Below, piece after piece: positions 8,351 to 29,329 of a stretch of 32,000 bases of DNA. Source of the DNA: Candidatus Electrothrix sp. GW3-4 (GTDB taxonomy: Bacteria > Desulfobacterota > Desulfobulbia > Desulfobulbales > Desulfobulbaceae). The DNA is taken from positions 2,610,001 to 2,642,000 of the forward strand of contig NZ_CP147990.1 of assembly GCF_037902255.1 (NCBI RefSeq), written 5' to 3'. Below the pieces are notes generated by a model. That model worked only from the letters and a program-made list of their open reading frames with translations. It ran no database searches and was not told where the DNA came from. The position numbers and the translations under genes are program-made. Positions within the stretch are counted from its first letter, which is position 1. Every line of letters starts with the position of its first letter.

Positions 8351-8390
8351 GATAAAAAGAGAAAAAAAAGAAACACCCCGAAACGGGGTG
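8351..8390 (-). terminator. Intrinsic terminator oriented for the minus strand
   Basis: The minus strand reads CACCCCG-TTT-CGGGGTG followed by TTTCTTTTTTTTCTCTTTTT. On the plus strand the same hairpin has no downstream U-tract. Confidence 0.6.
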
Positions 8391-8672
8391 CTCTGTCCAA
8401 CTATAAAAATACCCCGGTAGGAAAAAAAAGGAGGAGTAAACCTACCGAGGCATAGGGTTGAACCTTATGATGCTTATTACGTATAAAAAACGAGCTCAAT
8501 ACATGCCCCGGCAGGAAAAAAAAGGAGGAGTAAACCTGCCGGGGCATAGGGTTGAACCTTATTTACAGAGAGTCTCAGCGGAGCTAACTGCCCCGGCAGG
8601 AAAAAAAAAGGAGGAGTAAACCTGCCGGGGCTATAGGGTTACGCACCCTATGCTATATATAAAAAAGGGGGA
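8352..8672 (-). ncRNA. Candidate ~300-nt small RNA with three anti-Shine-Dalgarno-like (UUUACUCCUCCU-run) hairpin loops; strand assignment tentative
   Basis: The minus-strand-only terminator at 8351-8390, the minus-strand TATAAT at 8683-8678, the absence of a credible CDS and the three structured repeats support this call. The ends are guesses. Confidence 0.35.
8412..8653. repeat. Three copies of a two-hairpin unit (10-bp GC stem with a ~20-nt A-rich GGAGGAG loop, then a small ATAGGG/CCCTAT hairpin)
   Basis: Copies lie at 8412-8467, 8506-8562 and 8591-8653. The stem is CCCCGGCAGG/CCTGCCGGGG in copies 2 and 3. Copy 1 has CCCCGGTAGG/CCTACCGAGG, a compensatory C:G to T:A swap. Confidence 0.9.
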
Positions 8673-8677
8673 AATAA

Positions 8678-8706
8678 ATTATATTTATTCAGAACCCTGT
8701 TGCATC
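8678..8706 (-). promoter_or_regulatory. Possible sigma70-type promoter for the candidate sRNA
   Basis: A perfect TATAAT lies at 8683-8678 on the minus strand. Only a weak -35 (ATGCAA/GATGCA) sits 16-17 nt upstream. Confidence 0.3.
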
Positions 8707-9106
8707 TCCGCTTGAACAACTTGCCACTCTCTATCTTGACGTTGTTTTCGCATTTATAAATGCTATATTCATGCCACTTTTTCTTGTTTCTGCTGGCTTA
8801 TTCTAATTTCTTGTAATGACTACCCTAAAACAGGAACAAGAATCTTTGCCAATAACACTTCTTTTTCATTACCGCCGCAAAACGCGTAAGTTTTATCCTT
8901 ACCCAGATACCAGCCGGGTAAAAAATACCCAATCGTCCTCTGATATTCCACCAATAACGATTCCAGCACAAGATTTTCGAGCTATCTTTTGACTTGTCCT
9001 CCTCTGATAGAGTAAACTCCATTTTCAGAAGTCAGGAAAGACCATTCCACCTTGCAAGCAGAAATACAACCAACTGATTATAAAAACAAAAAATACCAAG
9101 AATAAC

Positions 9107-11040: not shown

Positions 11041-11487
11041 CTAAAGAATATCAGCCCAATTTTTCAATTCCTTAAGGTTTAACCGATGAGGGAAAAAATA
11101 TATCATCTCACCGTCAAGCTTTAAAAAATCATTCACTAGAAACTCCCTGCTCACCTCGGCGGGATGAATAGCCTTACATAACAATGCGGTCTGCAGAAAA
11201 GAGAAACTCTCAAGTTTCATAGCAAGGAACTCAAGCGCGATTCCTTCTTCAGTCACCCGGGAAACCGAACCAATCGCACGAATCACATTTTTTTCATACA
11301 ATGCAGACTGTTTCAAATCAATTATACAGAGGTCGCCAATAGCTTGGTCAAAATCCCCCTCAATCAATATTCCACTGAGGCTTACATTATTCACAAAACT
11401 TTTATATTCGTTTACGTGGAACTTAAGATGCACGGCCCACAGGATGCCCACTCGTGAAAATCGACGATTGTTTATATTTTTCATCAT
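11041..11487 (-). CDS. PilZ-domain (c-di-GMP binding) protein
   Basis: The N-terminus has RRFSR (RxxxR), followed 21 residues later by NVSLSG ([D/N]xSxxG). This is the canonical PilZ motif pair. Length is 148 aa. Confidence 0.7.
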   Translation of the reverse strand: MMKNINNRRFSRVGILWAVHLKFHVNEYKSFVNNVSLSGILIEGDFDQAIGDLCIIDLKQSALYEKNVIRAIGSVSRVTEEGIALEFLAMKLESFSFLQTALLCKAIHPAEVSREFLVNDFLKLDGEMIYFFPHRLNLKELKNWADIL

Positions 11488-12172: not shown

Positions 12173-13054
12173 TCACTCTCCAGAAGGACGGACAATATTA
12201 TACACATGCCTGAGATCATAGGCATGATACCGCGCAGGCTCGCCACGCCCCTCTCCCCCATAGCTCAACATCAGCCCTCTTTGCTTCTCATAATCGAGCC
12301 AATCTATAAAAATAGCGCTGTGCCGAACCTCTCGGTACTCATGATTAATATAAAATAACCAATCACCGGGCCGAATCAGCTCCCTCTCAGCATACTCGCC
12401 ATCCTCTTGCTCCCCAGAAAAAACGACCTGTCGTTTTCCTTCAGGATATCCTGATCGGCTATATACGGCATCCACATAATTCCAGCAACCGCCTTGAACG
12501 ATCTCTCTGTTTTCCAGGCTCATCTCCCGCCCGGTTTGCAGAATTTTCAGTGCCGGAGAATCTGCTTTTTTTTCAACTTGAAAAAGAGCGCTCAAGATGT
12601 CCTGATCATACACCTTACCACCCTCTTTTTTTTCTCTTTCTCTGGGTGGCATTTCCAGTTCAACGACAGGCTCTTCCTCGCTGACAGTCTTTGCTCCCTC
12701 CTCTGACACATCCTCAACCTCGGGGAAAAGCGACGAGACAGATGCATCGACAAGACCAGAACCTGTCTCGTCAAGGGGCGGTCTTTCCTGGTCGATGAGC
12801 ATAACCGTTTTCATCCCAAGAGGACCTCCCCCTCGTGACTCATCAGCGACGTGCTGTCCATCCACCAACTCTATAACCGGGGGTATAAGCGGCTGAACCG
12901 TCACAACTGCCGTTGAGTCAGAACCGTTAAGAAGGAACTCTGCTGAATCCTGCCCATCAGAAACAGGCCATTCATCCTTGAGAACTTTCCATATCAGTAA
13001 AAAAACACTCACCAACACTATCACTATAAGTCCGACCGTTATCACCCGTTTCAT
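12173..13054 (-). CDS. Membrane-anchored protein with C-terminal NlpC/P60-like (papain-fold) domain
   Basis: N-terminal TM helix KRVITVGLIVIVLVSVFLLIW, then an acidic linker. The C-terminal pattern GGCWNYVDAVYSRSGY...RPGDWLFY...RHSAIFIDW matches the Cys...GD(L/W)xF...H(V/S)xI layout of NlpC/P60 peptidases. I take the ATG at 13054; a GTG at 13060 is an alternative start. Confidence 0.55.
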   Translation of the reverse strand: MKRVITVGLIVIVLVSVFLLIWKVLKDEWPVSDGQDSAEFLLNGSDSTAVVTVQPLIPPVIELVDGQHVADESRGGGPLGMKTVMLIDQERPPLDETGSGLVDASVSSLFPEVEDVSEEGAKTVSEEEPVVELEMPPREREKKEGGKVYDQDILSALFQVEKKADSPALKILQTGREMSLENREIVQGGCWNYVDAVYSRSGYPEGKRQVVFSGEQEDGEYAERELIRPGDWLFYINHEYREVRHSAIFIDWLDYEKQRGLMLSYGGEGRGEPARYHAYDLRHVYNIVRPSGE

Positions 13055-13367
13055 GACCACTCACCCTGAGTTGCTCAATCAGCTGAAGCTACCAAGTATC
13101 GAAGATATGACATCCGCTCCCCCTCCAAAATTTGATATTACTCATGCGTAACATCAAAAGATACATCATACATCCTGGCCACAACCATAACTATAGCACA
13201 AAACTGAATAATTTCGGTAATAATTCTTACTCACGGACAAGAATATTCACCTCTTCCCCCCTGACAGTCACTGCATATGGCTCAAGATGCAAGGGTGCAG
13301 GAGGCTCAATAAAATGAGGAAGGGGAAAGAAAAAAGGAAAAAGAAGGTGCTGATGCGGGAGAAAAAA

Positions 13368-16094
13368 TTATTTCTTCGCAGGTAATTTCACCTGTTGATG
13401 AGGATAAATAAGGTCAGGATTGGCAATCTTATTTTTCTTGGCAACATCAGGATAATTAAAACCGCTGCCAGTATATTGCTCAGAAATCTTCCAGAGCGTA
13501 TCTCCTTTACTCACGGTATGATAAGTCTGATCTGACGTGCCATACAGAGGAGACATCGGTGGTCTTTTTTTCTGCTCAACATGCACGGGCTCTGTAAAAG
13601 AGATCGCCTCACCTGGTGTCTTACCTGTTGCCTTGCCAGCTTCTACAGCAGGGACTCCATCACCTGACCCTGCCACAGCAGGAATCCCTTGTTTCGTGGC
13701 GCGGCCCTCTTCAAGATCTCCACCTTGCTCTATCGGCTGAGCCAAACTTCCTGTCTTGGCGACCTCCTTAACGACATCCCCCTGCCCTTTCCTAACGATA
13801 TCCGAAGAAATATCCTGGGAAAGATCCACAACCGGGACAGCCTGCCTCTGCTCCCCTCTCTTTCCTTCACTCTTGGCCGGGCCTGTCTCAGGTTCATTGG
13901 AGAGTCTTGCCTCCCTGTCCCTCCTTAATACTGACGTACCACTCTCCCGAGCATGCTTCCCCCCCAGGTCTTCCCTATCTGTTCTTGCAGCAAGGGGAGC
14001 AACTCCCGAATCCTCAACAGGCTCCTTCTCCCTTATCACGGCAGTCTTGTGAGAAAGGTCGTCAACTACATGCTGTTGGGAAACTGCCTTCTCCTTGTCG
14101 TTTTCCTCACGAACATCCCTGGCAAGACCCTCTTCCGTCTCTCCCAATTCCTGGCCTTCCATTCCCTCCTCTTGCGTCACAGCATTTTCTGAAACATCCT
14201 TTCCTACAACAGTCTTTGGAGCAAGTTCTCTCTTTTCAAAAAAATCCTCCACAGGAATCGCCGCTGTTGACTGCTCAAAAATTGCTTGACCAGGGTGACC
14301 AGACGGAGTCCCTTGCCCCTCTTGCCCAACCCCTTTCTGGTCTGCCAATACCGATTCAGATTCTGGAAAGGCAGACGGATGCGCAACCAGCTGTTCAGGC
14401 ACCTTCTCCGGGATATCCTTTTCTATTCGTCCATCCCCTTCCCTCTTCTCAAAGGCTCCATCCAGAACCTCAGGAGCGGCTTGCTGATTATTTTCTAACC
14501 GAGGAGGATCGGATTTGATATTTTTTCCACGGAAAACTTCTTGATTTCGAAAGACAAAAAGCCAAAGAAAAAACCCTGCAAAGAGGACCAGCAATAAGAA
14601 GAGCATCCACAGCCTGAAACGCCTGCTCTCCTGAGCTTGCGGTGGGGGAAGCGGTTCCGTTTCTACCTCATGTGCTGCATCCTGAAAAAGAATATCCCGC
14701 TCTCTCTTCTTTATTTTATCAAGTTTCTTTTTAATCTTCCTCGGATCTGGGGATAAGAGAGGGGGGAATTGAACCTGCTTAACAAAATCAGCAGGCGCCA
14801 AAGCCGGGGATAAGGTCTCCTGTTCTGTTCCAGAAAATTGCCGAACAAACTCTTTGAGCTCAGAAAAGGTACCTGCCTCTTCAGGAAGGCTCCAATCCTC
14901 GGATAATAAAGCGGCGTCTTCCCAATCCTGCAACTGGCCAGGAGGCTCCAGAGAGAAATTTTTCTCCTCCCTCCCTCCGACAGCCTCAACATCCGGGCTC
15001 ACCGCTGTTTTTACTCCTTCTTCCCTTTGGCTATCAGCCCCTTCGCTGGAATCAGTCTGTTTTTTGACATCATTTTCGGCTGTTGGTGAAGAAGAAAAGC
15101 TGCCATTTTTTTTAAGATCCGAATGAGCCCCGTGCTCTTCATCATTCAGGAAAAGGTCAGCAGGCACCGCATGAGCTGACGTAAAAGATGCCAGCCCCTC
15201 TCCTACTGGCGCCTCTATCAACTTATCACCACCAGCGCTTTCTTCCTGCTCTTCCGGCTTATCAACATGACCATCTTCATCCTTCCGAGAAAATGCAGTG
15301 GCCAAGGAAGATTGCAGCAGGGCATCCTGTTCCTCAGTGAACATGAAAGCAGGAAGATCTGATGGGACGCCATTGTCATCTGTTTCCTCGAGGTCCTCAC
15401 CTTCTTCCTGAAGCAAAAAAGCATCATCATCCTGTAACGAAGTCTGGGACACTACCAAGGAGTTTCCAGTCGGAACAAGAGACTGGCCTTCATCCAGAGA
15501 GGATGCATACTCCTTTTCACCTCCTTCCCCTTCTTTCGGCGTATCAGGGCGATGGATATCTTTTTGCTCCTTCTTGTGATGAAACGCTGTGAGCAAGGAG
15601 GATTGCAACAGTTTTTCCTGTTCTTCAGTCAGCGAGACAGGTACATCCTCCCCCCTGGACTCTGTTTGCTGACACTCCTCAAGGCCATCCCCGAGGTCAG
15701 CAAGGGAGGGGGACGCCCCTTGCTTATCTTCTACACGATCAAACAAATCATCGTCTTGGCCCGATTCGGCAGCAGACGGCTGCTCGTTCTCCTCAAGAGA
15801 ACTCGGCAGAAGAGTTTTTCCATCTGAACCACTGTCGCTTTGACCTGCTCGGTTCGCGTCTTCAATATCAAAAAATTCGTTAAAGAAACCGTCGTGTTCA
15901 GCCGTACTCGCGAGAAATCGGTCCTCTTTACCCCGTGAAACAACAGACTGTTCCTCATCACCTTGCAGAAGCGTTCTATCCACTTCCGATAGAGCTCCCG
16001 ATCCCCCTTGAAACCCGAAAGAAGCGTCTGATATTTCAGAAACAGAATTGAGTTCCTGCCCCCCCTTGCTTCTCGTCGACTTCAGACCTATCAT
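13368..16094 (-). CDS. Large acidic single-pass membrane protein with C-terminal LysM domain (inverted FimV/HubP-like layout)
   Basis: 908 aa. Residues 1-490 are highly acidic and low-complexity with repeated TEEQ(D/E)xLLQSSLxTAF motifs. The TM helix is FRLWMLFLLLVLFAGFFLWLFVF (nt 14550-14618). An acidic E/K/G-rich region follows. The terminal YHTVSKGDTLWKISEQY...NPDLIYPHQQVKLP is LysM (nt 13380-13523). Confidence 0.8.
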   Translation of the reverse strand: MIGLKSTRSKGGQELNSVSEISDASFGFQGGSGALSEVDRTLLQGDEEQSVVSRGKEDRFLASTAEHDGFFNEFFDIEDANRAGQSDSGSDGKTLLPSSLEENEQPSAAESGQDDDLFDRVEDKQGASPSLADLGDGLEECQQTESRGEDVPVSLTEEQEKLLQSSLLTAFHHKKEQKDIHRPDTPKEGEGGEKEYASSLDEGQSLVPTGNSLVVSQTSLQDDDAFLLQEEGEDLEETDDNGVPSDLPAFMFTEEQDALLQSSLATAFSRKDEDGHVDKPEEQEESAGGDKLIEAPVGEGLASFTSAHAVPADLFLNDEEHGAHSDLKKNGSFSSSPTAENDVKKQTDSSEGADSQREEGVKTAVSPDVEAVGGREEKNFSLEPPGQLQDWEDAALLSEDWSLPEEAGTFSELKEFVRQFSGTEQETLSPALAPADFVKQVQFPPLLSPDPRKIKKKLDKIKKRERDILFQDAAHEVETEPLPPPQAQESRRFRLWMLFLLLVLFAGFFLWLFVFRNQEVFRGKNIKSDPPRLENNQQAAPEVLDGAFEKREGDGRIEKDIPEKVPEQLVAHPSAFPESESVLADQKGVGQEGQGTPSGHPGQAIFEQSTAAIPVEDFFEKRELAPKTVVGKDVSENAVTQEEGMEGQELGETEEGLARDVREENDKEKAVSQQHVVDDLSHKTAVIREKEPVEDSGVAPLAARTDREDLGGKHARESGTSVLRRDREARLSNEPETGPAKSEGKRGEQRQAVPVVDLSQDISSDIVRKGQGDVVKEVAKTGSLAQPIEQGGDLEEGRATKQGIPAVAGSGDGVPAVEAGKATGKTPGEAISFTEPVHVEQKKRPPMSPLYGTSDQTYHTVSKGDTLWKISEQYTGSGFNYPDVAKKNKIANPDLIYPHQQVKLPAKK

Positions 16095-18255
16095 TTTCCC
16101 CTTTCCCTTTCCGAAGGATTGAGACCAGGGTAGAGGTCATCAAATGATCCTGTTCTTCTGTTAACAGGACAGATGCCGCCTCCAGAGTAGCAGCATCTTC
16201 CCTTGTCGTCCCCTCCCCCCCCTCATGCGAGGGGACAGAGTCCTCTTCATGAAACGCAGTCTCTACGGCACCTTCTTTTTTCTTTACAACATCCTCTTTC
16301 GGTTCAACAGCATCCAGGACATCGAAAGCCGCTTTACCCTTCCCTCCCTGGTTTACCGTCCTTAATCCATTAGCCAACTCATCTTCTTTATGGCTGAGCA
16401 AAGCGGCCACAACAGATGAAAAGGTTTCCCCAGATTCCTCACCGATCCCAGCAAGCTCCTCCGGTTCCTCGATAAATCCAGAAGAACCAGCGTTCTTATC
16501 TGATTCACTCTCCTCCGACTTGTCTGTTTTCCGACTCAGCATTGATGCCACGACAGACTGCACCAGGGTATCCTGTTCTTCTTCCGCAAGGAGAACCGAA
16601 GCATTCCTTTCCAGATCCCAGTCATCAACAGGACCCTGCCCCTTGGAGAGAACATGCCGCTCTGGAGGGATAATGCCCTTGTTCTCAGATGAAATCAGGC
16701 CCCCTTCTTCGGCACCTTCCTCCCCATGAAGAGATTCCCTTACAAACGAGTCATCGGGTGCAAACCTTTCTTCGGCAGGCATTCTCAGCTCACTCTTCGG
16801 GTTAACGCCCTTCTCATTTTCATTTACCAGAGGGAGCAGATCATCTGAAAAGAAAAACAACTTGCGCACTTGCTTATCATCAAAACAGGTCGTCAGGGCC
16901 AGGATATTGAGAATCAGGCCCACCCGACTGGCCACGGGATAACAGCCATACACGGAAGAGTGCGGAGCAGTAAAGGGCAATGCACGCTGTTCGCTGACAG
17001 TAAGCGTCCGTTTTCCAAGAACCTCTTCAACCAAAACCAAGACACGCAGGTCGCCGTTACAGACCTGGAGCAGCTTCCAATTGGGGGTAGGATGGGATTC
17101 CCGCCCAAAACATCGGGCTGGGTCAAGAACGGGTAATAACTCATTCTGGTACAAAGTGACACCGGCAACAAGTCCTTTGCTACCTGCCAGACGCTGGCAA
17201 TGAGTGAAGGGGAGCGTATCCACGACCTCAACATCAGGCAGGGCATGAATCATCTTGTAAAGGGTAAACTCGACGATATCGACCGGCTGCTTACCAAATA
17301 CGGACGCAAAATGGCGCTCTGACTTCAAATTCGGGGTTATGACCTGCGAATGTATCTCATCCGGCGGCTGAGCAAGCAGCGCCCTGAAATCAAGCACAGA
17401 AATGATCTTTCGATCAGAGAGAATAGCGTTCTGCCGCCAGTCAGATCGGACCAGCACGGGTAATGGGGCAAGGGTCACAGAATCAGCAGACAAGGTTCCC
17501 TGATCACCATCAACGACAAAGGCGAAGCCCTGCCCTTCAACAGTGCCAATAAGCCATTTTTCCTCTCCACCTTCTCTCTCAGATGGGAGCTGTAAATATT
17601 CCCTGATGTCAAGAACGGTGAGGACCTGCTCACAGTACAGGGTCATTCCTTGCACAAAGGCAGGCAGAAGCGGGAGAGTAGTTAACGCACCAGGAGGCTG
17701 TGCCTGCTCCGAAACAAAATAATCGACTGAGGCAGCAAACGATTTTTCCTTGCAGGTAAAAACCCTGAAAGAGGTCAACGAGGGCGTGCTTTTCCCTTTT
17801 AGTAAGGGAAGATGCAACTGCGGAGCCGGGGGAGTATAGCCAGCAACAGAGACCTGGCGATGGACTTCCCGGATATTGATCAGAGGGACAAGTTTTCCGC
17901 CAAGCTCTACACAGCTGTCTATAAAGGGTGTTTGCAGGTAGACAGGAAGAGAGAAAACAGCCGTGGAAGGTAGCTGCACCTTGCCCTTTTCCTGTTCCAC
18001 AACAAAGCTGACTGAAAGATCATGACCCGCAGGAACGAGCACAGGATATCTTCTGGCCCTGCGGACAGGAGCAAGCCCGAGACAGTACGAGAGATCTGCC
18101 AGGCTGACCGGATGCGCCCCCATCATGGCGATAGCGGTCACGGCGCTGTTATTGTCTGTCAACCAATGGATACTCTGTTCTTCATGAGAAAGAACATCCT
18201 CTTTCCAGACACCGCAACGAAACCCGGCAAGGTCAAGCAGCAGAAGCTCTCTCAT
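16036..18255 (-). CDS. Protein with three tandem CheW-like modules and an acidic C-terminal tail
   Basis: The modules are at about aa 4-133, 164-297 and 326-458. Each shows the CheW layout, for example ELLLLDLAGFRCGVWKEDV...VTAIAMMGAHPVSLADLSYCLGL...YPVLV...SFVVEQ...GGKLVPLINIREV when aligned by eye to E. coli CheW. I take the ATG at 18255, which has a GGAG SD 6 nt upstream. The ORF track begins at a GTG at 18261. Confidence 0.7.
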   Translation of the reverse strand: MRELLLLDLAGFRCGVWKEDVLSHEEQSIHWLTDNNSAVTAIAMMGAHPVSLADLSYCLGLAPVRRARRYPVLVPAGHDLSVSFVVEQEKGKVQLPSTAVFSLPVYLQTPFIDSCVELGGKLVPLINIREVHRQVSVAGYTPPAPQLHLPLLKGKSTPSLTSFRVFTCKEKSFAASVDYFVSEQAQPPGALTTLPLLPAFVQGMTLYCEQVLTVLDIREYLQLPSEREGGEEKWLIGTVEGQGFAFVVDGDQGTLSADSVTLAPLPVLVRSDWRQNAILSDRKIISVLDFRALLAQPPDEIHSQVITPNLKSERHFASVFGKQPVDIVEFTLYKMIHALPDVEVVDTLPFTHCQRLAGSKGLVAGVTLYQNELLPVLDPARCFGRESHPTPNWKLLQVCNGDLRVLVLVEEVLGKRTLTVSEQRALPFTAPHSSVYGCYPVASRVGLILNILALTTCFDDKQVRKLFFFSDDLLPLVNENEKGVNPKSELRMPAEERFAPDDSFVRESLHGEEGAEEGGLISSENKGIIPPERHVLSKGQGPVDDWDLERNASVLLAEEEQDTLVQSVVASMLSRKTDKSEESESDKNAGSSGFIEEPEELAGIGEESGETFSSVVAALLSHKEDELANGLRTVNQGGKGKAAFDVLDAVEPKEDVVKKKEGAVETAFHEEDSVPSHEGGEGTTREDAATLEAASVLLTEEQDHLMTSTLVSILRKGKGENDRSEVDEKQGGAGTQFCF

Positions 18256-18356
18256 AATCACTCCATTCAGTGGAACACAGGTTCTCCAGCTTTTTTATCC
18301 ATCGCATTCCTACTCGCGAAAGAAGAGCAGGGGCAGCGAGTTCTCGTTGTCGCTTA

Positions 18357-20842: not shown

Positions 20843-23800
20843 ATGAAATCTCTCGGTATATGCGCTGGTGCTTCCAGCATCTCCTTAGCAGGACTTGAAC
20901 AGAACGCCACAGAAAGAAAGCTTCTTTTTACTCAATCCCGGGCCCATGACGGTAACCCAAGAAAGGTGCTGCGGGAGATGCTGGGGCAGCTTGAAGATCT
21001 TCAGCAATACAGGATTGCGGCCACCGGACGAAAGTTCAGAAATATGCTCAACTTCTCCGGCATTGCTGAGCCCGAGGCCGTGGAGCAGGCGACTGCGTTC
21101 CTCCTGCCCCCGGATCATCCCTATCGGGTGGTAATCAGTGCCGGTGGTGAGACCACCATGGTCTACCATCTGGATGAGGACGGCAGGGTGAACGAGATCC
21201 ACACCGGCAATAAATGCGCCTCCGGCACCGGGGAATTCTTTCTCCAGCAGCTGGGCAGGATGTCGGTCACTCTGGATGAGGCAGGCGAGATGAACCTGCC
21301 GGAAAAACCCCACAAGGTCTCCGGGCGCTGTTCCGTATTCTGCAAGAGTGATTGCACCCATGCCCTGAACAAGGGCGTCCCCAAGGACCAGGTGGTTGCT
21401 GGCCTATCGCGAATGATGTCGGGCAAGGTCATGGAGCTCCTCAAAAAACTCCCCAAGGATGCGGTGATGCTGGTGGGTGGCTGTGTAGACAATCAGGCCA
21501 TGGTCCATTATCTGCAAGAGGCCATCCCCGATCTGTACATCCCGAAAGAAGCTGCCGCCTTTGAGGCCTTAGGTGCGGCACTCTGGGCGATGGAGAACAA
21601 AGCCCAACCCTTCATCTCACTGGATGCCATCTTCACCGACCAGCAGGCTGGCCTGGCCACCCTGCCTCCGCTCTCTGCCTGCCAGCATCTGGTGCATTAC
21701 AAGAATCAGGAACGAGGCATTGCTGAAGAGGGTGACAAAGTCATCCTCGGTCTGGATGTGGGTTCAACCACCACTAAGGGCGTGCTTATGCGGCGGAGCG
21801 ATAAGGCCATTATTGCTGCCGAGTACCTGCGCACCAACGGCGATCCCATCGAGGCCTCAAAGAATGTCTACCAAAGCCTGGCAGATCAGGTCAAGGTACC
21901 TCTTACTATTGAGGGCCTGGGAGTGACCGGCTCTGGCCGCCAGATCGCTGGTCTCCATGCCCTGACCGACGGGGTGATCAATGAGATTGTGGCCCATGCC
22001 ACGGCAGCGGTCCATTTTGACCCGGAAGTGGATACCATCTTTGAGATCGGGGGCCAGGATGCCAAGTACACCTATATCACCAACGGGGTGCCCAGCGACT
22101 ATGCCATGAACGAGGCCTGCAGTGCAGGCACCGGCTCCTTTCTCGAGGAGGCGGCCAAGGAGAGCTTGGGCCTGGCAGTGACCGAAATCGGCGACACCGC
22201 CTTCCGGGCCACTGCCCCGCCCAACTTCAGCGACCAATGCGCGGCCTTTATCGGCTCAGACATCAAACGCTCGGTCCAGGAAAACGTGCCCCTGGAGGAT
22301 ATCGTGGCCGGACTGGTCTACTCCATTGGCATGAATTATAACAACCGGGTCAAGGGCAACCGGCCAGTGGGCAAGAAGGTCTTTGTCCAGGGCGGGGTCT
22401 GTTATAATAAGGCCGTGCCAGCGGCCATGGCCAGCCTGACCGGCAAAGAGGTGGTGGTCCCCTCAGAGGCCGGACTCATGGGGGCCTTTGGCGTGGCCCT
22501 GGAGGTGGAGCGACGCATGGAACAGGGCCTGCTTAACTCCCAGGAGTATGATCTCCAGGAGCTGATTGCCCGGAAGGTGAAGTACGGCGAACCCTTCATA
22601 TGCGGTGGCGGCAAGGACTGCGACCGAGGCTGTGAGATTTCCCGGATCCGGATCAAGGACAAGGTCTATCCCTTTGGCGGCATCTGTAACCGCTACGACA
22701 ACCTGATCCATAACCGTAAGGTCCAGACCGAGGACCTGAACCTGGTGATCAAGCGGGAGCAGCGGGTCTTCCGCGATCTGGCGCCTGCCGCCCCGACAGA
22801 TACCCGGCCCACCGTGGGCATGAACCGCTCCTTTCTCCTCAACACCTACTTCCCCTTCTTTAATGCCTTCTTTGCCGAGCTTGGTTTCCGCCTCACCCTG
22901 CCCTCCAAGGAAGATCCCAAAGGTACGGATCAACAGGGGGCAGCCTTCTGCTATCCGGTGGAGATTGCCCATAATTACGCGGCAACCCTACTGGCGGAAA
23001 AGCCCGACTATATCTTCCTGCCCCATCTCCGGGGCCTGGATATGGGTGAGCCGGACATGACCTCCTGCACCTGTGTCTTGGTCCAGGGAGAACCCTATTA
23101 TCTGCGCACCGCCTTTCCGGCCCTGAGCCCTGCTGGTCGGGTGGTTTCTCAGGTGATTGATTTCTCCAAGGGCAATAGCGCAGATACCGAGGCCTTCCTG
23201 GAATTAGCAGGAAACATGGGCATTGATCCGGCCGAGGTAAAGGATAAAGTAACAGCAGCCCTGAAGGCAGCAGATGCGTCGCAGCAGGCCTTTACCCAGG
23301 ATATCCGCGCAATGGGCAAACAGGCCCTGGCTGCCCTGGAGGCGACCCCGGAACAGTTCGGCACTGTGGTCTTCGGGCGTCCCTATAATGCCTTTACCTC
23401 AGTAGCCAATAAGGGCATTCCCGCCAAATTCGCCAGCCGGGGCATCGCGGTGATCCCCTTTGATATGCTGCCCTATTGGGAGGAGCAACTGGCTGAGGAC
23501 GAGAATATGTACTGGGCAATGGGCCAGATCATCCTCAAGGGGGCCCGCTTTGTCGAGCGGCACCCTCAGCTCTTTGCTACCTATATCACCAACTTCTCCT
23601 GCGGCCCGGACTCCTTCCTGGTCAGCTTCTTCCGGGATATGATGGGGCGCAAGCCCTCCCTGACCCTGGAACTGGATAGTCATACCGCAGATGCGGGCCT
23701 GGAAACCCGGATCGAGGCCTTTCTCGACATCATCCGCTACTACCGGGAGATCCAGAAGAAGGCCGCCTCTGTCCAGGTTGAAGAGCAGGTATACCGTGCT

Positions 23801-25126
23801 GCCACCCTTGAGGAACAACACGGCGTCACCGGGGTCCGCACCTCCAATGGCCACTGGCTGCCGCTGACTGACCCCAAGGTCCGCCTGCTCGTCCCGGCCA
23901 TGAGCCGATATGCCACCCCCTTGCTGGCTGCCGCCTTCGGAAGGGTCGGTATTCGGGCCGAGGCACTGCCGCCTGCGGATAAGGAAGTCCTCAAATTAGG
24001 TCGTGGTCATGCCTCGTGCAAGGAATGCCTGCCCCTGCAGACTACGCTGGGATCTCTGCTCAACCGGGTCAAGGCGCGCAAAGAGGATGAGGTGCTGGTT
24101 TACTACATGCCAGGTGCGGACGGCCCCTGTCGCTTTGGCCAGTATTATGTCTATACCAACAGGGTGCTTGAACAGCACAAGATTACAGACACAGCGGTGT
24201 TTACCCCCACCTGCACAAACGGATATCAGGGGTTGAACGATGCCTTTCTCCGGGCGGCATGGCGGGCGGTGGTGATCGGCGATCTCTTTGATGAGATGTG
24301 GTCGACTGTGCTGGCCGGAGCCGAGAATCGGGAGGCAGGCCTGCAGGTCTTTCATGAAGAGTTCAAGGCCATCACAGCGGTCATGCATCGGCGTTGGCCT
24401 GTAATTGCAAGCCAGCTCTCCAGGTCTGCGGCCCGCCTGGGCCGGATCCCCCTGAAGATGCCCTACGAACAGATCCCCAAGGTCTCCCTGATCGGCGAGA
24501 TCTACGTGCGCCACGACCCGATCTCCCTCCAGAGCCTTATCGAATCGCTGGCTGACCGAGGCATTATTGTCCGTACAGCATCAATCAATGAATGGCTGAA
24601 GTATACTGATTGGCTGATTCAAGAGGAGATCGAAGGAGAAGGGCCAACAATGGGTTCTGCTCTGCGGGGGCAGATAAAGAGATACTTTGACAGCGCCATC
24701 CGCAAACGGCTGGCTGCTTCAGGGCTGTTCTTTTATGATGGGCCAGCACCGGTCGAGCCGATCATTGATGTGGGCAAGAACTTCATCTCCCCTTATCTCA
24801 CCGGGGAGGCCATCCTCACCGTGGGCTCGGCCATGCACGAGATCCTCCATCCCTCCTGCGGCATCATCTCCATTGGGCCCTTTGGTTGTATGCCCTCCCG
24901 GGTGGCCGAGGCCGTGCTGAGCGAGAAGTTCACCACCACGGAGAAGCGGGTCCAACTCAACGGGGAGGGGGACCGTTGGCAGCCCATCTTAGAAAAGGAG
25001 CGCAAGCTGCCCTTTATCGCCATAGAGACCGACGGCAACCCCTTTCCGCAGCTCATCGAGGCCCGGATGGAAGCCTTCTGTCTCCAGGCAGAACGCTTGA
25101 ACGAGCAGATGCTGGCGTGTCAATAG
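20843..25126 (+). CDS. Acyl-CoA dehydratase activase-related fusion protein (two BcrAD/BadFG-type ATPase domains plus large C-terminal domain)
   Basis: Two actin-fold ATPase starts are present (LGICAGASS; ILGLDVGSTTTKGVL). Cluster-ligand contexts are CASGTGEFF / SGRCSVFCKSD and CSAGTGSFLEE. A ~750-aa C-terminal region typical of the long 'CoA-substrate-specific enzyme activase' fusions follows. Total length is 1427 aa. Confidence 0.8.
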   Translation: MKSLGICAGASSISLAGLEQNATERKLLFTQSRAHDGNPRKVLREMLGQLEDLQQYRIAATGRKFRNMLNFSGIAEPEAVEQATAFLLPPDHPYRVVISAGGETTMVYHLDEDGRVNEIHTGNKCASGTGEFFLQQLGRMSVTLDEAGEMNLPEKPHKVSGRCSVFCKSDCTHALNKGVPKDQVVAGLSRMMSGKVMELLKKLPKDAVMLVGGCVDNQAMVHYLQEAIPDLYIPKEAAAFEALGAALWAMENKAQPFISLDAIFTDQQAGLATLPPLSACQHLVHYKNQERGIAEEGDKVILGLDVGSTTTKGVLMRRSDKAIIAAEYLRTNGDPIEASKNVYQSLADQVKVPLTIEGLGVTGSGRQIAGLHALTDGVINEIVAHATAAVHFDPEVDTIFEIGGQDAKYTYITNGVPSDYAMNEACSAGTGSFLEEAAKESLGLAVTEIGDTAFRATAPPNFSDQCAAFIGSDIKRSVQENVPLEDIVAGLVYSIGMNYNNRVKGNRPVGKKVFVQGGVCYNKAVPAAMASLTGKEVVVPSEAGLMGAFGVALEVERRMEQGLLNSQEYDLQELIARKVKYGEPFICGGGKDCDRGCEISRIRIKDKVYPFGGICNRYDNLIHNRKVQTEDLNLVIKREQRVFRDLAPAAPTDTRPTVGMNRSFLLNTYFPFFNAFFAELGFRLTLPSKEDPKGTDQQGAAFCYPVEIAHNYAATLLAEKPDYIFLPHLRGLDMGEPDMTSCTCVLVQGEPYYLRTAFPALSPAGRVVSQVIDFSKGNSADTEAFLELAGNMGIDPAEVKDKVTAALKAADASQQAFTQDIRAMGKQALAALEATPEQFGTVVFGRPYNAFTSVANKGIPAKFASRGIAVIPFDMLPYWEEQLAEDENMYWAMGQIILKGARFVERHPQLFATYITNFSCGPDSFLVSFFRDMMGRKPSLTLELDSHTADAGLETRIEAFLDIIRYYREIQKKAASVQVEEQVYRAATLEEQHGVTGVRTSNGHWLPLTDPKVRLLVPAMSRYATPLLAAAFGRVGIRAEALPPADKEVLKLGRGHASCKECLPLQTTLGSLLNRVKARKEDEVLVYYMPGADGPCRFGQYYVYTNRVLEQHKITDTAVFTPTCTNGYQGLNDAFLRAAWRAVVIGDLFDEMWSTVLAGAENREAGLQVFHEEFKAITAVMHRRWPVIASQLSRSAARLGRIPLKMPYEQIPKVSLIGEIYVRHDPISLQSLIESLADRGIIVRTASINEWLKYTDWLIQEEIEGEGPTMGSALRGQIKRYFDSAIRKRLAASGLFFYDGPAPVEPIIDVGKNFISPYLTGEAILTVGSAMHEILHPSCGIISIGPFGCMPSRVAEAVLSEKFTTTEKRVQLNGEGDRWQPILEKERKLPFIAIETDGNPFPQLIEARMEAFCLQAERLNEQMLACQ

Positions 25127-25250: not shown

Positions 25251-27296
25251 ATGACGGATAACCGATTCGAGAACAGGGACGGCGACCAGAACATCGGTCA
25301 GGGTGATGGTGCCGTGGGCAAGCAGATTAATGACCACAGAACGACCTCCCAGGCCATCGACGGCAATGAGAACATGGCCGCAGGTAGGGACATCAACATA
25401 ACCAATAATCATTACCCGCCCGCCTCTCCCAACTCTCCCGCCTCTCGCAACCTCCTTCCGAGCGAAGACGCGGTCTTCCTTTACCGTGAAACCGAACTGG
25501 CCTGGCTGGATGAGCAGCTGCACCCTGACCGGGTGGTGGCGGTTTGTGGACCCGGCGGCATGGGCAAGACCTCCTTGGCTGCCCGATCCGTGCGCAGGCT
25601 TCCTGCTGACCGCTTCCCGGACGGGATCATCTTTCACACCTTTTACCATCAGCCGAACACGGCTCAGGCGGTGCAGACTATTGCCCTGGCCCTGCATCTG
25701 CCTGTACAGGGGGATGTGCAGCAGCAGGTGGCTGCGGCCCTGGGGAGCAGGCAGGCATTGCTGATTCTGGATGGGGCTGAGGAGGCGGACGATCTCCCGG
25801 CTGTGCTGGGCCTGCGCGGGCGATGCGGAGTGCTGATCACCACCCGGAAAAAGAGCGACTGCGGGCCGTTGCGCCTGGACCTGCAACCCCTGCCGGATGA
25901 GCAGTCCGAGGATGTGCTGCGGGCCTGGGGCGGGGAGGCCGGGCAACAGGATGCCATTGAGGAGATTGCCGAGCTGCTGGGTGGCTGGCCCGTGGCCCTG
26001 CGCCTGGCCGGGCATTATCTGCACAGCAGGGGTGAACCTGCAACAGACTACCTGCGCTGGTTGGAGGAGGAGCCGTTCAAGGAGCTGGGGGAGAGTGAGG
26101 AGCACCAGCGGGATAATGCGGCCCTGCTGCTTGCGCGGAGCACGGCCCAGGTGGGAGAGAATGCCCGCCTTGTGCTGGGGCTGGCAGGTTGCTTGGCCTA
26201 TGACCTACTGGCGACTGCGCCCATGATTGCCCTGCTGGAAGACGATGAACGCCGCTGCCGCAAGGCTGTGAACGAGCTGGTCAATTACGGCCTGCTGGAA
26301 CGCCGGGACGACCGCCTGCACATAGGCCATGCCCTGATCCATGAGTACGCGGCCCGGAACTTGCCCCTGAGCACAGAGGCCCTGGAGCGGGTGGCTGGCT
26401 ATTATATAGGGTGGTGCGAGGAACAGAGTGCAGCCGGTGTACCGGGCTATGTCCTGCTGGATGATGAGCGGGCGCATTGCCTGCGGCTGATTGCGGCTTG
26501 CCTGGATGGGGAACTGTGGCAGGAGGTGCAAGGCTTGGTCGGGGCGATGTGGGAGTATCTTGATCGGCAGGGCTGGTGGACAGAACGCTTGACTGCCTTG
26601 GAAATACGACTTGATGCGGCCCGCAAGGTTGGCGACCGCAAGAATGAAGGCTGGTGCCTGAACAGTTTGGGCTACACCTGCGCTAATCGCGGGGAGAAGG
26701 ACCAGGCCCTGCACTGGTATGAGCAATGCCTGCCTCTATGGCGTGAGCTGGGAGAGCGCAAGGAGGAAGGCGTGACCCTGAATAACATGGCCGAGATTTA
26801 TCGGCAACAAGGCAAGTACGAACTGGCTTTGGAATATTTTGAGCAGAGCCTGAGCATCTTGCGAGAGGTCGGCGACCGGGAGGGGGAAGGTGTGACCCTG
26901 AATAATATCGGTTCGCTTTATTGGGTACAGAAGAAGTATGATGAAGCCCTGTCGTATTATGAGCAGAGCCTACCTATTCACAGAGAGGTTGGCAATAAGA
27001 TCGTGGAAGGCATCACCCTGAACAACATTGCCGCTATCTATGCTGCCAAGGGTGAGCCGGGCAAGGCGGTGGAGTATTACAAGAAAGACTTGGCGATATG
27101 TCGAGAGCTGGGTGACCGGGCCGGAGAAGCGGTAACCTGCTGGAACATCGGCCTCACCTATGAAGATATGGGCGACCTTGCCCGGGCTGAGGAACACATT
27201 GCCCTGGCCGTGGAGATTGCAGAGCAGATCGGGCATCCTTCCTTGGAGAAATACCGCACATACCTGGAACGGCTGCGGGCCGCGCGGCGAATGTAG
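25251..27296 (+). CDS. STAND NTPase: short N/G/Q-rich N-terminus + NB-ARC domain + TPR repeats
   Basis: Walker A GPGGMGKTSLA, Walker B LLILDGAEE, VLITTRKK (TTR), and the GLPL-like GGWPVALRLAG. The C-terminus has 6 or more ~40-aa TPR units (LNN(M/I)(A/G)xIY...Y.EAL.YYEQSL.I.REVGD). Length is 681 aa. Confidence 0.85.
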   Translation: MTDNRFENRDGDQNIGQGDGAVGKQINDHRTTSQAIDGNENMAAGRDINITNNHYPPASPNSPASRNLLPSEDAVFLYRETELAWLDEQLHPDRVVAVCGPGGMGKTSLAARSVRRLPADRFPDGIIFHTFYHQPNTAQAVQTIALALHLPVQGDVQQQVAAALGSRQALLILDGAEEADDLPAVLGLRGRCGVLITTRKKSDCGPLRLDLQPLPDEQSEDVLRAWGGEAGQQDAIEEIAELLGGWPVALRLAGHYLHSRGEPATDYLRWLEEEPFKELGESEEHQRDNAALLLARSTAQVGENARLVLGLAGCLAYDLLATAPMIALLEDDERRCRKAVNELVNYGLLERRDDRLHIGHALIHEYAARNLPLSTEALERVAGYYIGWCEEQSAAGVPGYVLLDDERAHCLRLIAACLDGELWQEVQGLVGAMWEYLDRQGWWTERLTALEIRLDAARKVGDRKNEGWCLNSLGYTCANRGEKDQALHWYEQCLPLWRELGERKEEGVTLNNMAEIYRQQGKYELALEYFEQSLSILREVGDREGEGVTLNNIGSLYWVQKKYDEALSYYEQSLPIHREVGNKIVEGITLNNIAAIYAAKGEPGKAVEYYKKDLAICRELGDRAGEAVTCWNIGLTYEDMGDLARAEEHIALAVEIAEQIGHPSLEKYRTYLERLRAARRM

Positions 27297-28712: not shown

Positions 28713-29120
28713 CTACTTGATACCCCTCTCGTTAAAATAGCTGCTGTACTTCTGATCAGAGCCCTTGATGTGGTTTTGCAACCATTTGCTGAGAAACTGC
28801 AGGACCTGGACAGAGACCGTGGCCCTGCCCGCATCAAACTCCTCTTTAAACTCAGTGACCTTTTGGACAAAGGCCACATGCTCTTTCTTATGCTCAACAG
28901 CATGGGGGTACCTCACCTGCTGGAAATACCTCTCCTCTCTCTGAAAATGGGAGGCCGTGTAGCTGATCAACCCATTCAGGATCTCGGCGAGCACATCCTT
29001 ACCGTGTCCCGCCTTCATCGCGTCGGTGAGTTCATTAACCATCTCCACCAGTCGTTTATGCTCTTCGTCAATCTTGGCCACATTGACACTGAAGCTGTCA
29101 TTCCATTTGATTAAGCTCAT
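28713..29120 (-). CDS. Hemerythrin-like metal-binding protein (bacteriohemerythrin)
   Basis: MSLIKWNDSFSVNVAKIDEEHKRLV...SHFQREE...HKKEHVAF...WLQNHIKGSD carries the H/E/D iron ligands in canonical order. AGGAGG SD lies 5 nt before the ATG at 29120. Length is 135 aa. Confidence 0.85.
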   Translation of the reverse strand: MSLIKWNDSFSVNVAKIDEEHKRLVEMVNELTDAMKAGHGKDVLAEILNGLISYTASHFQREERYFQQVRYPHAVEHKKEHVAFVQKVTEFKEEFDAGRATVSVQVLQFLSKWLQNHIKGSDQKYSSYFNERGIK

Positions 29121-29329
29121 CACACCTCCTCTTTTGGTTTCCCGGCCCCTTAAGGACCATAATATATAGAGCAAGTATACCTGGTTCCCAGGGAACAAGA
29201 TAGGATCTTTTCTCTCTCCTGCAAGGAACTCCCAGGAGGAAAAGGGCACGAGTACCCTCCTGGCAAGCAGGCTGAGGTCATTTCTCGAACGCAGGAAAGG
29301 ACGCCGTGCTCTCAATGCCCACCCTGCTC

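Follow-up and report, generated by a model that had tools for sequence, protein, structure and literature searches.

A triple-CheW-like, LysM-bearing membrane protein, frameshifted in Candidatus Electrothrix sp. GW3-4, as a possible peptidoglycan-anchored scaffold for chemosensory arrays

The positioning of chemosensory arrays has, to our knowledge, been worked out in only a few model systems, namely through ParC, ParP and HubP in Vibrio, and through membrane curvature or stochastic nucleation elsewhere. CheW-like domains can tether arrays and proteins with several such domains build special arrays (bioRxiv 10.1101/2022.05.07.491035,.491037; PMC11940527). Among the latter, the CheW.III proteins of Vass et al. 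consist of three fused CheW-like domains with no other detectable domain, are tied to F9 systems, and occur together with DosM in the cluster I cytoplasmic arrays of V. cholerae; multi-domain CheW proteins in general are experimentally almost unexplored, according to the sole systematic survey that we found (bioRxiv 10.1101/2022.05.07.491035,.491037). The proteins of the FimV/HubP family combine a periplasmic LysM domain and one transmembrane helix with an extensive acidic region in the cytoplasm (PMC12918733). Here we describe a locus of the cable bacterium Candidatus Electrothrix sp. GW3-4 that is predicted to bring these features together in a single polypeptide. It lies at 13368..18255 on the minus strand of a 32,000-nucleotide stretch of contig NZ_CP147990.1 (positions 2,610,001 to 2,642,000), which we refer to as the window and number from its first letter.

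An earlier reading of this DNA (the original prediction) presented the locus as two overlapping genes whose products, a triple-CheW-like protein and a LysM membrane protein, would form a chemosensory-array or pole-anchoring module. The coordinates and the minus strand given for both open reading frames (ORFs) were correct. ORF A (16036..18255, minus strand; 739 amino acids) encodes the triple CheW-like head and the first 280 residues of an acidic linker, and ORF B (13368..16094, minus strand; 908 amino acids) encodes an acidic N-terminal part, a transmembrane helix, a periplasmic stretch and the LysM domain. The ATG of ORF A at 18255 gives the N-terminus MRELLL, which is shared by all orthologs, and has a GGAG Shine-Dalgarno sequence 5 nt upstream; a mechanical ORF call starts instead at a GTG at 18261 and returns a 741-residue version.

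What did not hold was the pairing of two genes. Near the end of ORF A is a run of seven G residues (16059..16065, minus strand; C7 on the plus strand), read as ...CAA GGG GGG GCA... in the ORF A frame and as the same bases one position later in the ORF B frame. Deletion of one G from this run produces a 1628-residue ORF, which may be compared with the 1627 residues of the closest ortholog, and which has the ortholog order of three CheW-like domains, acidic linker, transmembrane helix, periplasmic linker and LysM domain across the whole of 13368..18255. Upstream of the ATG of ORF B, its frame stays open for no more than 14 codons, and the 59-nt overlap between the end of ORF A and the start of ORF B (16036..16094, minus strand) is an artefact of the +1 shift in frame. 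When eight orthologs were aligned with MAFFT, similarity was unbroken through the junction, which reads ...EVDEKQGG/QELNSVSEISD...ASFGFQGG in the window (the slash marking the junction) and ...IHEEPEGEQEINSVLDKSQ...EALGFSS in one Electrothrix-type ortholog (locus L008). Because the one-G deletion restores the frame and homology continues across the junction, we interpret the split as a one-nucleotide insertion and, judging by these alignments, ORFs A and B as one gene broken by a single extra G in the G7 run. The extra G is either an assembly error at the homopolymer or a recent mutation, and no conclusion should be drawn from a "gene pair" in this window until reads over the tract have been consulted.

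The orthologs support this assignment. Homologs of ORF A in Candidatus Electrothrix have 52-66% identity to it, several with CheW and LysM in one protein, and at seven other Electrothrix-type loci (L003, L006-L011) a single ORF of 1301-1627 amino acids runs from the head through the linker and transmembrane helix to LysM. Single ORFs of about 790-920 amino acids were found in Nitrospirota and Gallionella genomes (L012-L014, L016-L018). The G7 insertion is absent from every ortholog and none of those compared is split at this site. The proposed link between the triple-CheW part and the transmembrane/LysM part is consequently stronger than had been supposed, the two being one polypeptide in nearly all relatives.

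These comparisons bear directly on two other explanations of the split. The ORFs are separate in this sequence, the ATG of ORF B is preceded by a G-rich stretch resembling a Shine-Dalgarno sequence (AAAGGGGAAAATG), and a linker motif described below is copied in both halves, as might be expected of two genes encoding a soluble triple-CheW protein and a LysM membrane protein that cooperate, for example via shared TEEQD-type helices. We consider this improbable since no ortholog is divided here, the break falls exactly at a homopolymer where one deletion recovers the ancestral frame with continuous homology, and the motif copies just follow one another as repeats within a single linker. A frameshift at a homopolymer would also suit a phase-variable (contingency) gene, in which slipped-strand mispairing at G7 switches the anchor on and off, and three of the six G/C runs of at least 7 in the window are inside the gene. 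However, this is a mild enrichment, attributable to Gly/Glu-rich coding and not conserved in the orthologs, which have few or no long G/C runs and lack the G7 tract, so that programmed frameshifting and phase variation are unlikely, and the latter barely credible to us; we rejected the contingency locus as a candidate. A run of seven is short for a phase-variation tract, and the remaining long homopolymers of the window break no gene.

The assignment of the N-terminal head to the CheW fold, a beta-barrel of two subdomains, is based on profile searches and on structure prediction, and here the original prediction of three CheW-like modules was borne out. Pfam CheW (PF01584) matched ORF A in three stretches at 1.1e-25 (90.3 bits, against a gathering score of 23.5). 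The most diverged of the three domains, D1 (residues 1-135; 17851..18255, minus strand), scored 19.1 bits (E 0.001), which when it is scanned alone is below the gathering score, while D2 (residues 160-297; 17365..17778, minus strand) and D3 (residues 322-458; 16882..17292, minus strand) scored 41.3 bits (1.5e-10) and 41.2 bits (1.6e-10), respectively. A profile of the region matched solved CheW structures, with the best value (2.4e-16, to the CheW structure 2qdl) belonging to D2, the domain nearest to canonical CheW in sequence. AlphaFold2 modelling of residues 1-479 from a 70-sequence alignment gave a predicted local distance difference test (pLDDT) of 92.1 and a predicted template-modelling score (pTM) of 0.90, with the same strand/helix pattern repeated three times, in D1 as well (pLDDT above 90), and with ordered linkers between the domains. 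When the head model was compared with the PDB using Foldseek, the top 18 matches were all CheW or CheA-P5 (E 2.6e-10 to 9e-7), these being the only folds matched significantly; target-normalised template-modelling scores were 0.63-0.81, referring to CheW-sized chains, and the root-mean-square deviation was about 2.4-4.6 Å for most of the best matches. No CheA, CheY or methyl-accepting chemotaxis protein (MCP) domain was found in ORF A, as had been predicted.

The three domains share only 14-18% identity among themselves and 13-19% with the CheW proteins of E. coli, Thermotoga and Thermoanaerobacter, and each of the three positions in the head has its own conserved residues throughout the family. 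This divergence, with its position-specific conservation, implies that the head is an old, specialised triple and not a recent triplication. As a separate observation, residues H30, C58, C115 and C438 (the last in the YGCY motif of D3) show little or no variation among 70 sequences of the family, and C115 of D1 and C438 of D3 sit at the position of L134 in E. coli CheW; a structural, metal or redox role would be a candidate for these residues.

The C-terminal half of the protein also has the layout that was originally described for ORF B. Its single transmembrane helix (FRLWMLFLLLVLFAGFFLWLFVF; ORF B residues 493-515; 14550..14618, minus strand) is preceded on the cytoplasmic side by a juxtamembrane block (FSELKEFVRQ...DPRKIKKKLDKIKKRERDILFQ; 14682..14867, minus strand) that is kept among the Electrothrix-type orthologs, and is followed by a 343-residue acidic periplasmic linker (13521..14549, minus strand). 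At the C-terminus is a LysM peptidoglycan-binding domain (ORF B residues 859-905; 13380..13520, minus strand), assigned by Pfam PF01476 at 39.7 bits (E 4.8e-10; gathering score 20.9); the LysM-type matches from NCBIfam on ORF B were all under their cutoffs. The protein has no signal peptide, and basic residues N-terminal to the transmembrane helix imply an N-in, C-out topology. Prediction from sequence and models thus gives a bitopic inner-membrane protein with a rigid cytoplasmic CheW-fold head of three domains, an acidic disordered tether, one transmembrane helix and a periplasmic C-terminal domain of a peptidoglycan-binding type.

The cytoplasmic tether of the repaired protein is 733 amino acids long, with an isoelectric point of 4.3 and 23% Asp plus Glu. 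It is made up of the roughly 280-residue disordered, acidic tail of ORF A (residues 460-739), whose presence had been correctly anticipated, and the 492-residue acidic N-terminal part of ORF B; no Pfam domain was found in either the cytoplasmic or the periplasmic linker. Within the cytoplasmic linker is an amphipathic repeat, LLTEEQDxLxxSxLxxxLxRK, present here five times if one half copy is included, three of the copies falling in ORF A and the other two in ORF B. The copies in ORF A, all on the minus strand like those in ORF B, are copy 1 (LLAEEEQDTLVQSVVASMLSRK; 16528..16593; predicted helix 558-574), the half-motif (FSSVVAALLSHK; 16387..16422; predicted helix 612-621) and copy 3 (LLTEEQDHLMTSTLVSILRK; 16108..16167; predicted helix 700-717); those in ORF B are copy 4 (SLTEEQEKLLQSSLLTAFHHK; 15573..15635) and copy 5 (MFTEEQDALLQSSLATAFSRK; 15282..15344). 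In the AlphaFold models the motif segments form helices within an otherwise disordered linker, and the helix of copy 3 has a pLDDT of 85 although its surroundings are below 40, suggesting copy 3 as a candidate site for docking by folding upon binding. More generally, the four to five conserved amphipathic helices look like docking motifs for further partners. The repeat is restricted to the cable-bacterium versions of the protein, having been found in six of 158 proteins. Its TEEQDxLL portion has what we take to be a superficial resemblance to the CheY-binding peptide of FliM and CheZ, with the register off by one residue, and we make no claim from it.

With a ligand-binding domain outside the membrane and a signalling-family domain inside it, this membrane-spanning protein might also be read as a sensor, in which LysM detects the state or fragments of peptidoglycan and relays a signal across the membrane, so that the head modulates a chemosensory pathway. 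The protein has, however, only one transmembrane helix and lacks any transmitter module, such as HAMP or a dimerisation module, and conformational signalling is implausible through hundreds of variable, disordered linker residues on both sides of the membrane. We regard a sensory role as very improbable.

To determine the extent of the family we used the triple-CheW head in an exhaustive profile search, counting representatives of 50%-identity clusters. There were 273 representatives at E<=1e-30, and nearly all of the best 150 of these matched the profile from end to end, that is, over all three domains. Architecture was tallied for 146 listed proteins of at least 600 amino acids: a C-terminal LysM domain is present in 129, a transmembrane helix after the head in 125, and both in 120, with the proteins that do not have the full architecture being mostly short or truncated. 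The cytoplasmic linker varies from 111 to 721 amino acids in the family (median 264, mean 23% Asp plus Glu) and has no conserved motif except a basic patch before the transmembrane helix, and the median periplasmic spacer is about 65 amino acids; the cable-bacterium proteins are at the extreme of both length distributions. Family members carry the pipeline name 'chemotaxis signal transduction protein/nucleoid-associated protein YgaU'. The head had no match in plasmids by tblastn. We found no description of the architecture, and no characterisation of the family, in the searchable literature, in agreement with the original view that this is not a described system. Based on these searches, we consider the family to be a widespread, unstudied single-protein architecture and not a gene pair.

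Comparison with the described systems supports placing the family as a variant of the multi-CheW scaffold and of the wall-anchored hub, a member of none of the established groups but not categorically new. Like CheW.III, it has three tandem CheW-like domains in one polypeptide and presumably a specialised scaffolding function, as opposed to simple replacement of CheW. CheW.III proteins, by their description, are soluble, encoded in che clusters and without any other domain, whereas the family adds an acidic tether, a transmembrane helix and a C-terminal LysM domain, so that the 120 proteins with both of the latter fall outside the CheW.III definition. The HubP/ParC/ParP chain of Vibrio has a LysM-anchored acidic membrane protein that is linked to arrays via the CheW-like ParP, two functions that here would reside in a single protein; the differences are the lack of a ParC ATPase in the window or neighbourhoods, three CheW-like domains in place of one, and a LysM domain at the C-terminus. 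ParP itself likewise tethers through a CheW-like domain, but the present protein has no parC or che-cluster context and its N-terminus is itself a CheW-like domain.

The periplasmic LysM domain, single transmembrane helix and acidic cytoplasmic region of FimV/HubP proteins are all present in the family in reversed order, with the opposite topology (N-in, LysM C-terminal) and a CheW-like head. Homology to FimV/HubP beyond this shared logic was not upheld, as neither the FimV C-terminal TPR model nor the core model of NCBIfam matched either ORF at E<=1, and Pfam gave no such match. The head has the same fold as the subunits of CheW-only hexameric rings and CheA-P5/CheW rings, and the hydrophobic strand with V58/I65/P67-type contacts is kept in D2 and D3; unlike in those rings, the domains are joined covalently as a set of three, differ strongly from each other, and are without Arg62. 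A further parallel is with MotB and PomB, which also have a cytoplasmic N-terminus and one transmembrane helix, and in which a peptidoglycan-binding domain at the periplasmic C-terminus holds a machine in place (stators: PMC11940527). These differ in having an OmpA-like fold in place of LysM, and the family has no ion channel partner and no homology to them.

The function that we favor, with a rough probability of 0.45, is that of a peptidoglycan-anchored, acidic-tethered scaffold for chemosensory arrays; binding of peptidoglycan in vivo, binding of arrays and a role in positioning are what we infer from the domain logic. The LysM end would fix the protein to the sacculus, and the head would dock on chemoreceptor tips, insert into the lattice of CheW/CheA-P5 rings, or both, using the hydrophobic groove of D3 and perhaps that of D1 for the former and the ring strand of D2 and D3 for the latter. 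The acidic tether would then keep the array at a fixed site and a fixed distance from the membrane, making the protein a functional analogue of the HubP-ParC-ParP chain collapsed into one polypeptide. It is possible, though doubtful, that the protein is a fully self-contained wall anchor in which the three CheW-like domains form a pre-assembled arc of a CheW/P5 ring and the linker helices of the cable bacteria recruit partners in the manner of a HubP-like hub.

If the scaffold function is correct, a CheW-type head with a direct tie to peptidoglycan would solve array positioning in a new and very simple way and would give multi-domain CheW proteins a concrete function. Since environmental Nitrospirota, Gallionella and cable bacteria commonly have the family, it may be of importance to the taxis of microbes that live in sediment or cycle iron. 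We see it as a testable lead on both array positioning and multi-CheW function, with domain logic as its basis.

The residues of the head provide evidence on both sides of this proposal. We used the CheW contact-residue lists of PMC13098124 and aligned the three domains to E. coli CheW, and because the alignments are at 13-19% identity all position equivalences below are approximate. The groove set of L20, I33, V36, I39, V105 and V108 is largely kept in D3 and partly in D1. In D3 the equivalents of L20, V36, I39, V105 and S106 are hydrophobic in most of the 70 sequences, and D1 retains most of the receptor-contact hydrophobics. The strand G-x-[ILV]-[LV]-P-V-x-D-L, which supplies the V58/I65/P67 ring contacts in E. 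coli CheW, is kept in D2 and D3.

Several observations weigh against the array-scaffold function. Arg62 in the NLRG motif of E. coli CheW is conserved and tied to receptor/kinase coupling (PMC3828127; PMC13098124), and it is replaced in all three domains, by G, C and Q in D1, D2 and D3 of the window and across the 70 sequences mainly by D/G/E in D1, D/N/R/G in D2 and D/E/N in D3. Arginine occurs at this position in nine of the 70 D2 sequences and is not a common residue there in D1 or D3. The groove of D2 has R and D at the equivalents of L20 and V105, D1 has E/D at V105, and the dependence of these equivalences on such distant alignments is itself a weakness. There are no genes for CheA, MCP, CheY, CheB/R or ParA/ParC in the window, of which the absence of a ParA/ParC-type ATPase had been noted originally, and no che or ParC genes beside nine family members outside Electrothrix. 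The pole- or array-anchoring role of the original prediction is thus, with no adjoining chemotaxis gene in the members examined and with Arg62 missing, still one that we infer. Some family genes are themselves incomplete: the ORF in GCA_016744835.1 (L004/L005, 5549) stops about 90 amino acids after the transmembrane helix with no LysM before the next gene, the Electrothrix AR5 ortholog (L024, 5759) stops right after motif 3 and is followed by unrelated sequence, and in one Nitrospirota metagenome-assembled genome (L015, 12244-12543) the head and LysM are encoded in different frames. Given that the present copy is also frameshifted, some lineages may be able to do without the gene.

The stop of the AR5 ortholog after motif 3 raised the candidate of a recurrent split at one place, which we rejected because the downstream DNA of AR5 is unrelated and shows no frame change.

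The absence of Arg62 is consistent with a head whose role is structural only, and which by this criterion of residues probably scaffolds and does not couple kinase control. The same absence, together with the polar or charged groove of D2 and partly of D1, would also suit a repurposed head, that is, a wall-anchored hub for non-array partners such as c-di-GMP (cyclic di-GMP), PilZ, type IV pilus or cell-envelope machinery, in which the CheW fold serves only as a helix-binding or oligomerising module. No che genes were found within about 10 kb of any locus examined, as this explanation would have it. In addition, GGDEF/EAL genes adjoin the family gene at two Gallionella loci and one Nitrospirota locus, a PilZ gene is located two genes downstream in the window, and a neighbour annotated as NlpC/P60 is syntenic in Electrothrix. 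On the other hand, all significant structural and sequence matches of the head are to chemotaxis CheW or CheA-P5, D3 retains its receptor-contact hydrophobics, the neighbours are not kept between clades, and genomes of this kind are rich in GGDEF/EAL genes. On balance a repurposed head seems rather unlikely to us, and array scaffolding remains our preferred function.

The conservation of the neighbourhood was examined by all-against-all clustering of the ORFs from 20 loci. The expectation that the locus would be conserved held for the two parts of the gene, which are kept together as one ORF in relatives, but not for its surroundings, since the other neighbours are syntenic within Electrothrix only. 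These are an upstream K+ channel gene and those for a 115-residue ORF, a 295-residue protein, a 110-residue ORF and a ParE-like topoisomerase. Apart from scattered GGDEF/EAL genes no neighbours were common across clades among the 20 loci. The genes of this type encode PAS-GGDEF-EAL, REC-GGDEF and GGDEF-EAL proteins (L016 2695-5112; L017 361-1353 and 7178-10336; L013 13557-15848), and the PilZ gene of the window (11041-11487, minus strand; Pfam 5.9e-6) encodes a protein of the c-di-GMP-binding type with an ortholog among the compared loci in L008 only. The GGDEF/EAL and PilZ neighbours could be a link to c-di-GMP or could be there by chance.

Directly downstream of the CheW-LysM gene, the gene for the 295-residue protein (12173-13060, minus strand), which has an N-terminal transmembrane helix, is syntenic in six Electrothrix-type loci. 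The protein had no Pfam or PDB sequence match, its ortholog in Ca. Electrothrix laxa is named 'NlpC/P60 family protein' by NCBI, and a Cys/His pattern, GGCW...PGDW...RHSAIF, can be picked out by eye. It may be a putative cell-wall hydrolase adjoining the LysM protein.

Scans of the whole window with Rfam gave no match, and promoter and terminator scans were uninformative, with terminator counts near the expectation from shuffled sequence. Elsewhere in the window, priA and the ParE-like topoisomerase gene are separated by a 757-bp AT-rich intergenic region (8351-9106) with A8-A9 tracts at 8362, 8422, 8516 and 8601. A STAND-type nucleoside triphosphatase (NB-ARC/NACHT/AAA_16) with C-terminal TPR repeats is encoded at 25251-27296 (plus strand), near a gene for a hemerythrin-domain protein (28713-29315, minus strand). 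Finally, the gene at 20843-25126 (plus strand), which is syntenic in Electrothrix loci, encodes a 1427-residue fusion of two BadF/BcrA/BcrD-type ATPase domains and a DUF2229 CoA-enzyme-activase domain.

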